From a virus: a DNA stretch of 64,000 nucleotides. Positions 3,546-56,471 of this stretch are shown here, piece by piece. How positions within the stretch are numbered: the stretch's first letter is position 1; each line of letters starts with the position of its first letter. The notes under the pieces were generated by a model that saw only the letters and a list, made by a program, of their open reading frames with translations, had not been told where the DNA came from and did not search any database. Both the position numbers and the translations under genes were made by a program. The stretch is from positions 1-64,000 of IMG/VR virus record IMGVR_UViG_3300032898_000001; one strand, 5' to 3'.

Positions 3546-3642
3546 CCTGAAGATCGCCGTCGCCCGTGGCTGTCTCAACGTGGTACGAGATATAGTGAGG
3601 CCAGGAGCAGAGCCGTCTTCTCCCGGAACCGAGCGAGGTCGA

Positions 3643-4296
3643 GTGCCAGAAGGACAGGCAGCCACGGGCGTCGAGACGCCGCCACCCGCTCCCCAGCAGA
3701 CCAGCATCAACCTGATCTGCATCAAGATCATCTGGATGGGAGCCAGCGAGGCGAAACGCAAGGTCGCCTCGATGAACGCCCCGTTCCACGACATCGCGAT
3801 CTTCCCCGAGCCCGACTATCCCAAGGGCCGCAAGGGACTCACGATCTCGCGGGCCTGGGAGCAGATGCACGGCCCGGACGACGCCGGCCTGCTCATCCTC
3901 GACGGGGACGTCGCGATCGACCCGGTCGATCTCAACACCATGGTCCAGCACGTCGCGTCCGACCGCGAGGCCGTCTGGGTCGCTCCCGTGAAGCTCTGGC
4001 CCAAGTCCACCCACCTGGCCGCCTGGGTGTGGGGACACCGCAAGGCACCGCCTCCCGGGATGACCCAGCAGGACGACGTCATGCGGTTCTGGCAGCAGGA
4101 CATCGACGACCCGCGGTGGTGGACTTTTAATTTCACATACATTCCGCGCAGTCTCGTTGTGAAGGCGCAAGAGGCCGGGCTCGAGACCTGGCACTACCCG
4201 AACGTGGACAAGAACTTTCACGAGCTGGCCACCGAGCTCAACTACCGCGTCAAGGTCGTCCGCGGTGACTGCCACCCGCGCCATATCAATTTTTAA
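3643..4296 (+). CDS. Putative GT-A fold glycosyltransferase
   Basis: Hydrophobic strand + DxD (LLILDGDVAID), later acidic motif NVDKNF and C-terminal H; start uncertain (GTG 3643 after GAGG). Confidence 0.5.
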   Translation: MPEGQAATGVETPPPAPQQTSINLICIKIIWMGASEAKRKVASMNAPFHDIAIFPEPDYPKGRKGLTISRAWEQMHGPDDAGLLILDGDVAIDPVDLNTMVQHVASDREAVWVAPVKLWPKSTHLAAWVWGHRKAPPPGMTQQDDVMRFWQQDIDDPRWWTFNFTYIPRSLVVKAQEAGLETWHYPNVDKNFHELATELNYRVKVVRGDCHPRHINF

Positions 4297-54627: not shown

Positions 54628-54659
54628 ACCATATCACCTGCCACGCCATTTGTAAACAC
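54628..54659 (-). promoter_or_regulatory. Conserved phage promoter
   Basis: GTG-TTTACA-N17-TATGGT. Confidence 0.8.
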
Positions 54660-54666
54660 CCTCACG

Positions 54667-54707
54667 TAAAAAGTGGGGCCGCCCTCCCCGAAGAAGAGCG
54701 GCCCCAC
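54667..54707 (-). terminator. Intrinsic terminator of the RNA operon
   Basis: GTGGGGCCGCTCTTC-TTCG-GGGAGGGCGGCCCCAC-TTTTT. Confidence 0.85.
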
Positions 54708-54709
54708 GC

Positions 54710-55020
54710 CGGCGTGCCCTTTCTAGTCGCGGTGACACGCCGTTTATCCCGGCTAACCGCTAAGGACGGCGTCGCCATCGGGCTCACCCCGGCGATGGCC
54801 ACCTCGCGTGACCGGGGGTCTTGCCTAAACGAGACGGGCGGGCTCAAACACCCGCGGCACCCCGTCGGGTCCGTCTCGTTTTGTGCGCTGGCCCGACTCG
54901 AACGGGCCGGCAACCTTCTCGGTCCGGTGCACCGGCCGATCTCGCGCAGCGCTCCATCTTTCTAGGACGGTGCTCGATTCAAGCCGTGCCCTGATTATCG
55001 ACACGGCTAACCGAGTAGAG
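54710..55020 (-). ncRNA. Unknown ~310-nt structured RNA(s) containing a T-arm element
   Basis: Stems AGCCGTGT/GCACGGCT, AAACGAGACGG/CCGTCTCGTTT, GCCATCG/CGATGGC, ACGCCGT/ACGGCGT; T-arm GCCCG-TTCGAGT-CGGGC; no credible ORF. Confidence 0.55.
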
Positions 55021-55025
55021 CGTCG

Positions 55026-55096
55026 CACCTGGTCGAGGGATCGAACCTCGTTCTGCGCTTTTGGAGAGCGCCGTGCTGCCACTGCACCAACCAGGC
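55026..55096 (-). tRNA. tRNA-Trp(CCA)
   Basis: Cloverleaf; anticodon arm GCGCT-CTCCAAA-AGCGC; no encoded CCA. Confidence 0.9.
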
Positions 55097-55215
55097 CCGA
55101 CCGATCGCTCCCACGTAAACCGGGACGCCGTGTACCAGGGGCCAGGCCCCCGGCATCGCGCTCGCCTCCCGGACCATCTTCTCCATACCCCATCCCGGCG
55201 GTGGTCCGAGCGCGA

Positions 55216-55353
55216 TCAGTCGTCTGTCTCTCGAGGCTCATCGCAGTCGACGCAAGAGTCGAACCGCTCGCTGTCGATGTTGAACCGGTGCCCGTGCACC
55301 TCACACGCGGTCCACTCCGAGAAGTCGATCTCGTCTCGTTCCTGGGTCTCCAC
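55216..55353 (-). CDS. 45-aa Cys/His micro-protein inside the RNA operon
   Basis: GAGGAGG RBS, GTG; CEVHGH..CVDC. Confidence 0.5.
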   Translation of the reverse strand: METQERDEIDFSEWTACEVHGHRFNIDSERFDSCVDCDEPRETDD

Positions 55354-55509
55354 GTTTTGCCTCCTCTCTACGAACCGCGACGAGCCCGAACCAAACCACG
55401 TCTCGTCTCGAGGCACCCTGCAACGAATGTCGCGTTGGGCCGTCCCACCAGGAGGCCGTTCCTCGTCCTCCACGGCATGAGACTGGTCTCGCCGTGCCTC
55501 TTCCCTACG

Positions 55510-55580
55510 AGCCGTACCGGGGAATCGAACCCCGTCCCGCTGGTTGGAAGCCAGATATGCAGCCACTACACCAGTACGGC
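55510..55580 (-). tRNA. tRNA-Gly(TCC)
   Basis: Cloverleaf; CTGG-CTTCCAA-CCAG; U discriminator. Confidence 0.88.
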
Positions 55581-55685
55581 ACACGGGACGGTTTCTACCT
55601 CCGACGCCTCGGCGTGCATACCCCCATCGAGCTCGTTACCGATCCCGAACGGTCTAGCTCCGACGTACGTCCCTCGGACCTCACG

Positions 55686-55756
55686 TGCCCCACGCCGGGA
55701 TCGAACCGGCGACCACTGGATGAAAGCCAGCGATGTTGCCACTACACCAGTGGGGC
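55686..55756 (-). tRNA. tRNA-Glu(TTC)
   Basis: Cloverleaf; GCTGG-CTTTCAT-CCAGT. Confidence 0.88.
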
Positions 55757-55758
55757 GA

Positions 55759-55869
55759 GAAGAGGGTGACGGGAGTCGAACCCGCCCAGCGGACCGTCGT
55801 CCTTTTGGCGTACGCCGTCAGCCCTGACGCTCCGGGAGTCGAACCCGGATACTGCCGGTTACCCTCTTC
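55759..55869 (-). ncRNA. Double-T-arm tRNA-like RNA (no anticodon)
   Basis: Closing stem GAAGAGGGT/ACCCTCTTC; T-arms CCGGG-TTCGACT-CCCGG and GCGGG-TTCGACT-CCCGT. Confidence 0.65.
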
Positions 55870-55871
55870 AG

Positions 55872-55943
55872 CTGACCCGGGAGGACTCGAACCTCCAACC
55901 ACCTGGTTAACAGCCAGGAGCTCTGCCGTTGAGCTACGGATCA
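55872..55943 (-). tRNA. tRNA-Asn(GTT)
   Basis: Cloverleaf; CCTGG-CTGTTAA-CCAGG. Confidence 0.92.
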
Positions 55944-55947
55944 TTGC

Positions 55948-56079
55948 GTGGGCCTCTGCCGCTGAGGTACCGATCGTGATCGTTCTCACCGTACCCGGTC
56001 TTCCGCCACGCGGTCCTTCGGGTCGTGCTCGAGCGACCTGCCAAACGATCGAGAGGGACTCGAACCCTCGTCTTCCCAC
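55948..56079 (-). ncRNA. Circularly permuted tRNA-like RNA (YrlA-like topology)
   Basis: 5' GTGGG-AAGAC-[GAGGG TTCGAGT CCCTC]-TCGATCG-insert-CGATCGG-TA-[CCTC AGCGGCA GAGG]-CCCAC 3'. Confidence 0.7.
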
Positions 56080-56081
56080 CG

Positions 56082-56153
56082 CGCCATCGACGGGAGTCGA
56101 ACCCGCTGCCACCTGGCTGACAACCAGGCACTCTACCGTTGAGTTACGACGGC
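56082..56153 (-). tRNA. tRNA-Asp(GTC)
   Basis: Cloverleaf; CCTGG-TTGTCAG-CCAGG. Confidence 0.92.
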
Positions 56154-56158
56154 CTAGC

Positions 56159-56227
56159 ACGGTAGGGCTGCAACCCGCTGGGGAATCGAACCCCACCCTA
56201 CCGCTGACGACCGTGGCCACGGTCGTT
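56159..56227 (-). ncRNA. Mini T-arm structured element
   Basis: Palindrome ACGACCGTG/CACGGTCGT; stem GCGGTAGGG/CCCTACCGT enclosing TGGGG-TTCGATT-CCCCA. Confidence 0.5.
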
Positions 56228-56229
56228 TG

Positions 56230-56301
56230 TACCCCACGCGGGGATCGAACCCGCGTCTCCTGGCTGAGAACCAGGTGTGACTGCCACTGCACCAGTGGGG
56301 C
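56230..56301 (-). tRNA. tRNA-Glu(CTC)
   Basis: Cloverleaf; CCTGG-TTCTCAG-CCAGG. Confidence 0.88.
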
Positions 56302-56305
56302 TTTC

Positions 56306-56396
56306 CCGAGGGCCTAGCACCTGCGAGGGCTCGAACCTCCCACCGGTTACCAGCCGGTCGCTCCTGCGCCGGGTGTCGAACCCGGTAGGTCCTCGG
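56306..56396 (-). ncRNA. Double-T-arm RNA flanking an anticodon-like hairpin
   Basis: CCGAGG..CCTA/TAGG..CCTCGG stem; CCGGG-TTCGACA-CCCGG; ACCGG-CTGGTAA-CCGGT; GAGG-TTCGAGC-CCTC. Confidence 0.6.
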
Positions 56397-56439
56397 TTCG
56401 GCGGTAAGGTTTGGTTTTCCTGACCGCCTGGTAGTACCT

Positions 56440-56471
56440 ACTATACCAGCCGCGGGGCAGCTTGTAAACAG
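56440..56471 (-). promoter_or_regulatory. Promoter of tRNA/ncRNA operon
   Basis: CTG-TTTACA-N17-TATAGT. Confidence 0.85.

Follow-up and report, generated by a model that had tools for sequence, protein, structure and literature searches.

tRNA mimics related to the YrlA class of Y RNAs interleaved with six tRNA genes in a phage RNA operon

YrlA (RF02553) is a Y RNA with a tRNA-like domain, which was described for bacteria and phages (Chen et al. 2014, PMC4201824). The YrlA of M. smegmatis is cleaved by RNase P and provided with CCA (PMC4201824), and the idea that the tRNA-like domain is a decoy was already proposed (PMC7790460). Further, a phage Ro60 was shown to bind phage Y-like RNAs and the host PNPase in vitro (PMC12135203). 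The role of the tRNA-like domain of bacterial Y RNAs is a question standing since 2014. Stable RNAs which do not decode are also found in the tRNA cluster of phage T4, where species 1 and 2 (rnaC and rnaD) are co-transcribed with the tRNAs and presumably freed by the tRNA-processing enzymes. The RNAs presented here are likened to them by description only, and T4 is not known to have a Ro60 system, unlike the phage analyzed in this work.

This phage is uncultured and has a high-GC genome of 95.5 kb, of which a stretch of 64 kb is the window. On the minus strand, a single transcription unit of approximately 1.8 kb extends from position 56468 to 54673, bounded by a predicted sigma-70-like promoter and an intrinsic terminator. 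ARAGORN and Rfam agree on six tRNAs in it, all on the minus strand, and inspection of the sequence revealed CCA after none of the six (0/6). Thus, the initial annotation, which had proposed one promoter-to-terminator unit with six CCA-less tRNAs from the nucleotide sequence and had recommended a check with such programs, was confirmed in this point. The corresponding features are:

56440..56468, minus strand: promoter of the RNA operon, sigma-70-like, TTTACA-17-TATAGT, with TG preceding the -10 region
56229..56301, minus strand: tRNA-Glu(CUC), ARAGORN and Rfam, CCA-less
56081..56153, minus strand: tRNA-Asp(GUC), ARAGORN and Rfam, CCA-less
55871..55943, minus strand: tRNA-Asn(GUU), ARAGORN and Rfam, CCA-less
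55685..55756, minus strand: tRNA-Glu(UUC), ARAGORN and Rfam, CCA-less
55509..55580, minus strand: tRNA-Gly(UCC), ARAGORN and Rfam, CCA-less
55025..55096, minus strand: tRNA-Trp(CCA), ARAGORN and Rfam, CCA-less
54673..54707, minus strand: intrinsic terminator, stem of 16 bp with a U run downstream

The genes neighbouring the operon gave no functional hints, and neither an RtcB ligase nor a CCA-adding enzyme is encoded in the phage genome, which was also searched for tyrosine and serine recombinases with negative result. Relatives sought in viral contigs via the two flanking proteins P0001 and P0002 were not found; P0001 has two homologues with 74-76% identity.

The T-arm motif GTTCGANNC has 14 matches on the minus strand between positions 54895 and 56381, and 10 elsewhere in the 64-kb window on both strands. 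Six of the matches in the operon are inside tRNAs and eight are extra. Seven of these eight show a stem of 4-6 bp and a 7-nt loop and are true T-arms, with stem and T-loop consensus intact in each of them, while the eighth (55264) forms 2 bp only, i.e. no real stem, and is located within a 45-aa ORF. When the motif was required to have a stem of 4 bp or more, 13 matches were found in the operon, six in a second array adjoining the Ro60 gene and none elsewhere in the whole 95.5-kb genome. The tRNA model (Infernal, E up to 10) had no match in the spacers, ARAGORN and Infernal recognizing the six tRNAs only. The seven extra T-arms are genuine and not parts of tRNAs, in line with what had been claimed. 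It had also been stated that they lie outside any cloverleaf; this is wrong for the one at 56065, which is a part of the permuted cloverleaf described below. A phage attP tRNA fragment was considered and rejected because no integrase is encoded; the T-arms are inside a transcribed RNA operon and not beside an integrase.

The spacers, numbered S1 to S7 in the direction of transcription, contain the following elements:

56400..56428, minus strand: leader hairpin H0 of S1, GGCGGU/ACCGCC, close to where the primary transcript starts
56307..56395, minus strand: S1, predicted twin-T-arm RNA, closing helix P1 (9/10 bp) around two T-arms and a mid hairpin
56369-56385, 56342-56358 and 56325-56339, minus strand: T-arm 1, mid hairpin and T-arm 2 of S1, which also has the G-rich strand CAGGUGCUA
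56154..56228, minus strand: S2, hairpin H0 at 56207-56226 followed by a closing helix of 8 bp (56196-56203 paired with 56160-56167)
55944..56080, minus strand: S3, predicted permuted tRNA-like RNA without anticodon, according to its fold and a weak YrlA match
55757..55870, minus strand: S4, 9-bp closing helix GAAGAGGGU/ACCCUCUUC, two T-arms with G53 at 55844 and 55781
55581..55684, minus strand: S5, spacer without T-arm, z-score -0.07, fold no better than shuffles
55216..55353, minus strand: ORF of 45 aa inside S6, Cys/His-rich, GAGGAGG ribosome-binding site, containing the stemless GTTCGANNC
54885..54952, minus strand: S7, part of the 3' trailer, tRNA-like, T-arm of 6 bp (54890-54908) directly next to a closing helix of 5 bp, inner hairpin

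Terminal helices close S1 to S4, and the extra modules are 75-137 nt in size. In the cases with energy z-scores of -2.6 to -3.4, the closing helices comprise 8-10 bp. Like S5, both halves of S6 (z-scores -0.67 and -0.45) fold no better than shuffles, so that the description of nearly every spacer as a closed structure was overstated, although it applies to S1-S4. Moreover, the extra modules do not form one family of mimics as had been assumed: S3 is a predicted permuted cloverleaf and S1 a predicted twin-T-arm RNA.

S3 and its orthologues share with YrlA the permuted order of T-arm, closed acceptor-like stem, D-arm and closing anticodon-like stem. From 5' to 3', S3 consists of the 3' strand of the anticodon stem, the variable loop, the T-arm, a 7-bp acceptor stem, U8-A9, the D-arm (CCUC / AGCGGCA / GAGG) and the 5' strand of the anticodon stem, and it matches all elements of a permuted cloverleaf, including U8, A14, G18-G19, C48 and U54-A58. 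Its ends fall at the position of the anticodon loop, and the acceptor stem is closed by a 68-nt insert. The energy z-score is just -1.0, yet the minimum-energy fold is the permuted cloverleaf. By its fold, S3 is a circularly permuted tRNA body with no anticodon. A covariance model of the permuted domain (R1) was dropped, since it is not discriminating and combines whichever T-arm a spacer contains with the D-arm of the tRNA that follows; an explicit descriptor scan used instead detected the permuted order in S3 alone (55947-56080), the T-arms of S1, S2, S4 and S7 failing the same scan. Orthologues of 76 nt are present between two tRNAs in each of three sister lineages (G1, G2 and G3). Among the lineages the closing stem changes in a paired manner between GUGG/CCAC and GCGG/CCGC, and the acceptor stem of S3 in the window has a wholly different sequence when compared to the orthologues but is still fully paired. 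In Ro60-linked arrays of other phages we found 24 permuted domains with two-sided changes in 15 of 16 pairs, in a set preselected for pairing; their matches to the Rfam YrlA model are sub-threshold (E 1e-5 to 1e-3).

The 7-bp acceptor stem, similar to that of M. smegmatis YrlA, makes cleavage of S3 by RNase P plausible. In contrast to YrlA, S3 has no Ro60-binding stem or motif, its ends at the anticodon-stem position directly abut tRNAs, its acceptor loop carries the insert, and it is located approximately 19 kb from the Ro60 gene and not within about 2 kb as the modules of G1-G3. The Rfam YrlA model gives 17.9 and 16.3 bits in the operon, below the gathering threshold of 69, and 27.8 and 25.5 bits for the orthologues in G1 and G2, respectively. 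The twin-T-arm RNA S1 as well as S2, S4 and S7 are entirely outside the YrlA plan. Like in the permuted tRNA genes of Cyanidioschyzon merolae and in two-piece tmRNA, the T-arm-containing 3' half comes before the D-arm-containing 5' half in the gene; the difference is that the joined ends of S3 give no anticodon loop and that there is no tag reading frame. The S3 copies of G1-G3 carry the alanine identity set, G3:U70 plus A73, on which tmRNA relies as well; S3 in the window lacks this set. As candidates, one-piece and permuted tmRNAs were rejected: the tmRNA mode of ARAGORN finds none, the modules having the sizes given above, and the Rfam model tmRNA_permuted yields sub-threshold, partial matches of T-arm size only.

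By its fold, S1 (energy z-score -2.6 vs shuffles) is a twin-T-arm RNA, an addition not present in Rfam. Twin-T elements with five helices in identical order exist in the four lineages in spite of differing sequences, with a T1-T2 spacing of 45-50 nt and a conserved GGUG[GC]UA after T2, and a hairpin equivalent to H0 is located upstream of the element in G1, G2 and G3. Within G1-G3, five positions of P1 are changed on both sides and none is disrupted. These pairs were counted on explicitly located strands, because MAFFT misaligned the helices of both S3 and the twin-T elements. A profile of the G1-G3 elements (nhmmer) had no significant match to S1 in the phage genome, and by blastn the similarity of S1 to the sister elements has an E value of 3e-4 only, in a small database. 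The resemblance is architectural.

S2, S4 and S7 appear to be lineage-specific, with folding energy as their one line of support. The closing helix of S2 (z-score -3.4) encloses one T-arm (56179-56195) and the D-loop-like strand AGCGGGUUGCAG. In S4 (z-score -2.7) the second T-arm directly adjoins the 3' strand, resembling an acceptor/T minihelix. The global alignment of S4 with a permuted element of G1 having a similar closing helix was not above shuffles, i.e. no orthologue is demonstrable, and none were found for S2 and S7 in the collections searched. The two parts of S7 have z-scores of about -2.5, the tRNA-like element -2.7. As for the trailer that follows tRNA-Trp, a Y RNA was rejected there, the look-alike GGUGCGACG...UACUC having no 3' partner strand.

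All four lineages encode a TROVE/Ro60 gene, which in the genome of the window starts near 74.27 kb, approximately 18-19 kb from the operon. The collections searched contained these four lineages; the identity between their DNA polymerases is only ~66%, G1-G3 being mutually close; a pattern scan of metagenomes found G2 and G3 again and nothing further. In G1-G3, modules of the S1 and S3 types are located beside tRNAs within a Y-RNA/tRNA array, and the Ro60 gene follows directly downstream of this array. The Ro60-stem signature of the clade (GGUGYG ... YACUUC with GRUCUC) occurs four times in the Ro60-adjacent array of our phage and not at all in the operon, from which the motif GNCGAAN(0-1)G is also absent. 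Canonical Ro60 binding is therefore unlikely for the operon modules. Our phage has the array in two separate parts: the stem-bearing RNAs are beside Ro60, and the stemless modules and six tRNAs are under an own promoter. The modules are tRNA mimics related to a described class, that of YrlA (Chen et al. 2014, PMC4201824).

Overall, the initial annotation is partly supported. Its view of an undescribed type of RNA does not wholly hold, since the YrlA tRNA-like domain and phage Y RNAs were published. The suggested link to Ro60 has grounds in the encoded TROVE protein and the position of the sister modules, not in the stem motif. The covariation it called for exists as paired changes in S1 and S3, while S2, S4 and S7 have no orthologues to compare, and the decay of tRNA pseudogenes, which it named as alternative, does not apply to S1 and S3, whose helices persist across four lineages, the changes in them being paired.

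With moderate confidence, we propose that the six decoding tRNAs are co-expressed with tRNA-derived, non-decoding RNAs, which are released by processing and act in trans on tRNA-binding proteins. This explanation is supported by the finding that T-arms occur nowhere in the genome but in its two RNA clusters. RNase P of the host, together with the enzymes trimming tRNA 3' ends, would cut at the flanking tRNAs and thereby free the modules as separate RNAs with an L shape or an elbow, which could occupy in trans proteins recognizing the tRNA body or elbow. Most likely they would serve as uncleavable competitors, directed at tRNA-targeting nucleases or at some other factor that binds tRNA, acting alongside the Ro60/Y-RNA system but not via the canonical Ro60 stem, and S2, S4 and S7 may be later additions of this kind, restricted to the lineage.

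It is tempting, even if rather unlikely, to go further and regard the stemless modules as free-standing, anticodon-less mimics of the tRNA body, which independently of Ro60 jam host immunity systems or toxins recognizing or cutting tRNAs. Putative targets would be anticodon nucleases and VapC-type or Schlafen-type enzymes, and the permuted S3 type may be cleaved by RNase P, giving a tRNA in two pieces that lacks an anticodon loop and can accept CCA.

That the modules instead belong to the Ro60 particle, tuning RNA degradation by direct binding to Ro60 (e.g. with the 3' end in the cavity) or by joining stem-bearing Y RNAs, is in our opinion unlikely. The position of the sister modules upstream of Ro60, the YrlA domain architecture of S3 and the in vitro binding of phage Y-like RNAs and PNPase by phage Ro60 (PMC12135203) are in favour of it. 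The distribution of the stem signature (none in the operon, four in the Ro60-adjacent array) argues against it, as do the 19 kb separating the stemless modules from Ro60 in this genome and the presence of a permuted tRNA-like RNA in a complete phage without TROVE. Furthermore, because S3 and its orthologues abut tRNAs on both sides, there is no room for a Ro60-type stem.

The modules could also be elements acting in cis, which guide the cuts of RNase P and RNase Z or shield precursor ends and are inert once released. We consider this improbable. tRNA-like punctuation occurs in mitochondria and provides a precedent, plant mitochondrial t-elements and the MALAT1 mascRNA being likewise T-arm-bearing tRNA-like folds in longer transcripts, which RNase P or RNase Z recognizes; it would also fit that S1 and S2 each open with an H0 hairpin and that S7 is part of the 3' trailer. 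However, cut sites are already supplied by the tRNAs or the transcript start flanking S1-S4, and the full set of tertiary interactions in S3 and the five helices of the twin-T element are conserved to a degree that a mere mark for cutting would not require.

That the modules as a whole are mere remnants without function, left by duplication and recombination of tRNA genes and tolerated in a non-coding operon, is quite doubtful. S4 and tRNA-Asp share 18 identical nt, in the second T-arm of the former and the T-arm region of the latter, and the S3 type aligns to tRNA-to-tRNA junctions in cultured phages, which suggests tandem duplication; orthologues are lacking for S2, S4 and S7, and the folds of S5 and S6 resemble shuffles. 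On the other hand, debris would not be expected to keep the S1 and S3 types with paired stem changes across four lineages as distant as their polymerases indicate, or intact stems and T-loops in seven of seven T-arms, or closing helices of 8-10 bp with z-scores down to -3.4. Finally, unrecognized decoding tRNAs (permuted, split or intron-bearing) maturing into adaptors are extremely improbable: the elements of S3 are ordered as in permuted tRNA genes and the mid-hairpin loop of S1 has the form CU-GGU-AA, but joining the S3 ends gives a non-conserved loop of 5-6 nt, the S1 loop is not conserved in the sister lineages (6 or 9 nt), the tRNA model has no matches, and RtcB ligase is not encoded.

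This phage clade is important for the question of the tRNA-like domain, which it offers naturally detached from the Ro60-binding stem and, in one genome, also away from the Ro60 gene. The detached domain is flanked by tRNAs, so that its ends would be set by tRNA processing. This allows a clean test of its function alone, be it as a decoy against defences that cleave tRNAs, as a scaffold or as a protective cap. Phage 'tRNA clusters' can contain mimics as numerous as the tRNAs themselves; in the ARAGORN annotation, every extra tRNA-like module was missed and some halves of Y RNAs were miscalled as tRNAs.

The genome (an IMG/VR virus record of 95.5 kb, direct terminal repeats, approximately 66% G+C, with the window as its first 64 kb) encodes in the window a family A DNA polymerase, a D5-type primase, an SNF2 helicase and a tail tube protein, and cultured Streptomyces phages are only distant relatives of it. 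ARAGORN and Rfam agree on six minus-strand tRNAs (Glu-CUC, Asp, Asn, Glu-UUC, Gly and Trp), and inspection of the sequence revealed no CCA after any of the six. One promoter and one terminator delimit a single unit that holds all of them, together with the leader, spacers and trailer, which were numbered S1 to S7 in transcript order:

56468-56440, minus strand: operon promoter TTTACA-17-TATAGT, start of the unit
56307-56428, minus strand: S1, a leader hairpin and then the twin-T-arm RNA
55944-56080, minus strand: S3, circularly permuted cloverleaf (minimum-energy fold and descriptor scan)
55216-55353, minus strand: 45-aa Cys/His-rich ORF (C-x2-H-x-H ... C-x2-C) between tRNA-Gly and tRNA-Trp
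54707-54673, minus strand: 16-bp operon terminator, end of the unit

On the minus strand, 14 copies of the motif GTTCGANNC fall within 1.5 kb, versus 10 on both strands of the other 62 kb. When a T-arm was defined as this motif with a stem of 4 bp or more, the operon contained 13 T-arms, six in tRNAs and seven extra; six more are clustered in an array at 73.4-74.2 kb, and none was found elsewhere in the whole genome. The initial annotation, a six-tRNA operon with seven extra T-arms, thus holds, and the clustering far exceeds what chance would give. Its reading of the extras as a single family was not borne out, since they are of several kinds: S3; S1; and S2, S4 and S7. An eighth extra motif match (55264) was rejected as a T-arm; its stem has just 2 bp and it lies inside the 45-aa ORF.

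S3 is the sole complete permuted cloverleaf in the operon according to an explicit descriptor scan, and its minimum-energy fold reproduces the permuted order exactly. It starts with the 3' strand of the anticodon stem, the variable loop, the T-arm and an acceptor stem of 7 bp that a 68-nt insert closes, and ends with U8-A9, the D-arm (CCUC / AGCGGCA / GAGG) and the 5' strand of the anticodon stem. The core and elbow nucleotides of tRNA (U8, A14, G15/C48, G18-G19, U54-A58) are present. Via DNA polymerases approximately 66% identical we located three sister lineages, G1, G2 and G3, giving four lineages with the window genome. Each sister has a 76-nt version of S3 between two tRNAs (Ile/Asp in G1, Phe/Asp in G2, Trp/Asp in G3):

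L013:1577-1652, plus strand; L012:2439-2514, minus strand; L066:1455-1529, plus strand: 76-nt permuted RNAs of G1-G3

The closing stem of this type changes from GUGG/CCAC to GCGG/CCGC, and paired changes occur in the T-stem. The acceptor stem of S3 in the window has almost no sequence in common with the sister copies, yet all seven positions are paired. Among 24 permuted domains from Ro60-linked phage arrays, both-side changes were found in 15 of 16 pairs, the set having been selected for pairing and the paired fraction thus being partly by construction. The S3 type aligns to tRNA-to-tRNA junctions, which suggests how such modules may have originated. The sister 76-nt RNAs carry G1-C72, G2-C71 (G2·U71 in the copy of lineage G3), G3·U70 and A73, the alanine identity set that tmRNA also has; S3 of the window is without it (C1-G72, A3-U70, U73).

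[quoted passage not shown] However, S3 reaches only 17.9 bits against an Rfam threshold of 69, and it is without the Ro60-binding stem, the signature of which was found 0 times in the operon and four times in the Ro60-adjacent array. There is also no space for this stem, because tRNAs abut S3.

In S1 a closing helix of 9-10 bp surrounds T-arm 1, a joiner that contains GGA, a mid hairpin, T-arm 2 and a strand GGUG[GC]UA. The identical order of five helices exists in G1, G2 and G3, with the T-arms 45-50 nt apart; all helices pair in each lineage despite differing sequences, and within G1-G3 the closing helix shows both-side changes at five positions without disruption. The likeness of S1 to these elements is architectural: a sequence profile of the G1-G3 elements did not retrieve S1, blastn gave an E-value of just 3e-4 in a small database, and no Rfam family matched the twin-T RNA. 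A T-arm followed by CCCGGTGGTA, equal to the twin-T motif, was also seen in an unrelated context, downstream of a glyoxalase-like ORF on two bacterial metagenome contigs (L065:780-845 and L068:2200-2265).

S2 consists of a hairpin and an 8-bp helix around one T-arm and the D-loop-like strand AGCGGG. S4 combines a 9-bp helix with two T-arms, of which the second abuts the 3' strand like an acceptor/T minihelix and shares 18 identical nt with the T-arm region of tRNA-Asp; in S7 a 5-bp helix abuts a 6-bp T-arm. Compared to shuffled sequences, their fold energies correspond to z-scores of -3.4 (S2), -2.7 (S4) and -2.7 (S7), while S5 and S6 have no special fold by this measure. These three modules are lineage-specific; no orthologues were found, and the match suspected between S4 and one G1 element was not significant. 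They may be duplication debris, an explanation which is excluded for S1 and S3.

All four lineages encode a TROVE (Ro60) protein. In the window genome its gene starts near 74.27 kb, and upstream of it are tRNA-Val, tRNA-Met and several Y-RNA-like units with the repeated stem signature GGUGYG ... YACUUC (5' side) and GRUCUC (3' side), which score 31-35 bits, below threshold, with Rfam YrlA. In G1-G3 tRNAs, stem-bearing Y RNAs and extra T-arm modules form a single array directly upstream of the Ro60 gene. In the window genome this array is split: tRNAs accompany the stemless modules, and the stem-bearing Y RNAs lie beside the Ro60 gene. Further Ro60-bearing phages, located with a Ro60 alignment, likewise interleave tRNAs and Y RNAs, and one complete phage of 45 kb that has no TROVE gene (L059:6480-6700, record G006) carries a permuted tRNA-like RNA.

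The extra T-arm modules are structured and tRNA-derived, two kinds of them being conserved. Their neighbours are always tRNAs or the transcript start, and they are genetically tied to the phage Ro60/Y-RNA system without having its binding stem. This linkage would fit direct Ro60 ligands, but the missing stem speaks against them; moreover, the split array and the permuted RNA in a phage without Ro60 favour a function not requiring canonical Ro60 binding. Pure processing or stability elements are less convincing, since the flanking tRNAs already supply cut sites and the conserved detail exceeds the needs of a cut mark. Cryptic decoding tRNAs would need an anticodon loop and a match to tRNA models, both absent, and attP fragments were dismissed because the genome encodes no integrase.

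Most likely, the modules would compete for proteins recognising the body or elbow of tRNA. Their release could come from cuts that host RNase P and 3'-end enzymes make at the flanking tRNAs, and RNase P possibly also cuts S3 at the 7-bp acceptor, as in M. smegmatis YrlA, to which CCA is then added (PMC4201824). RtcB and a CCA-adding enzyme are both absent from the phage's genes, and therefore that work would fall to host enzymes. A tRNA shape without an anticodon loop would be uncuttable by an anticodon nuclease. Such competition has been proposed in print for the YrlA domain (PMC7790460) and agrees with the idea that phage tRNAs counter tRNA-targeting defences (PMC10264068). While tRNA-mimicking Y RNAs, phage ones included, are already known, the following are new: a YrlA-type domain that is free-standing, flanked by tRNAs and devoid of the Ro60 stem; the twin-T-arm RNA; how many tRNA-mimic modules one tRNA operon holds; and the natural separation of modules from the Ro60 gene.

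Near-identical promoter-like sites (TTTACA, 17 nt, TG, TATRGT) at 54628-54656 and 56440-56468, both on the minus strand, serve the gene immediately downstream of the operon terminator and the RNA operon, respectively; the pair may represent the phage's own promoter consensus. The 45-aa ORF has a strong ribosome-binding site (GAGGAGG), and a different small Cys-rich ORF lies between array tRNAs of another Ro60 phage (L040, approximately 3584-3700, plus strand). Small zinc-binding-like proteins may be members of these RNA operons. After tRNA-Glu(CUC), the sister sequences L012, L013 and L014 share a conserved spacer of 115-120 nt that lacks a T-arm (G2 366-485 and equivalents). It starts with GGGGTG(C/T)CGGCACGACGGCGAACC and probably represents a further structured RNA, for which the window showed no recognisable counterpart.

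At L059:6480-6700 a promoter-like site precedes a tRNA-like RNA whose anticodon region is abnormal and then the permuted domain, closed by a stem of approximately 13 bp. At L047:3674-3950, tRNA-Arg(CCG) is followed by a tRNA-like RNA in which an acceptor-type helix of 11-12 bp abuts the T-arm, and then by a cloverleaf whose acceptor, D and T arms are normal but which has an insert of approximately 75 nt and no standard anticodon loop. Finally, in Y-RNA-like units (L042:3239-3316, L045:3313-3388 and L045:3619-3691) ARAGORN took the 5' half together with the T-arm for a tRNA (SeC-tca, Ile-gat and Gln-ttg), a misreading that probably gives rise to false tRNA annotations in phages with Ro60.
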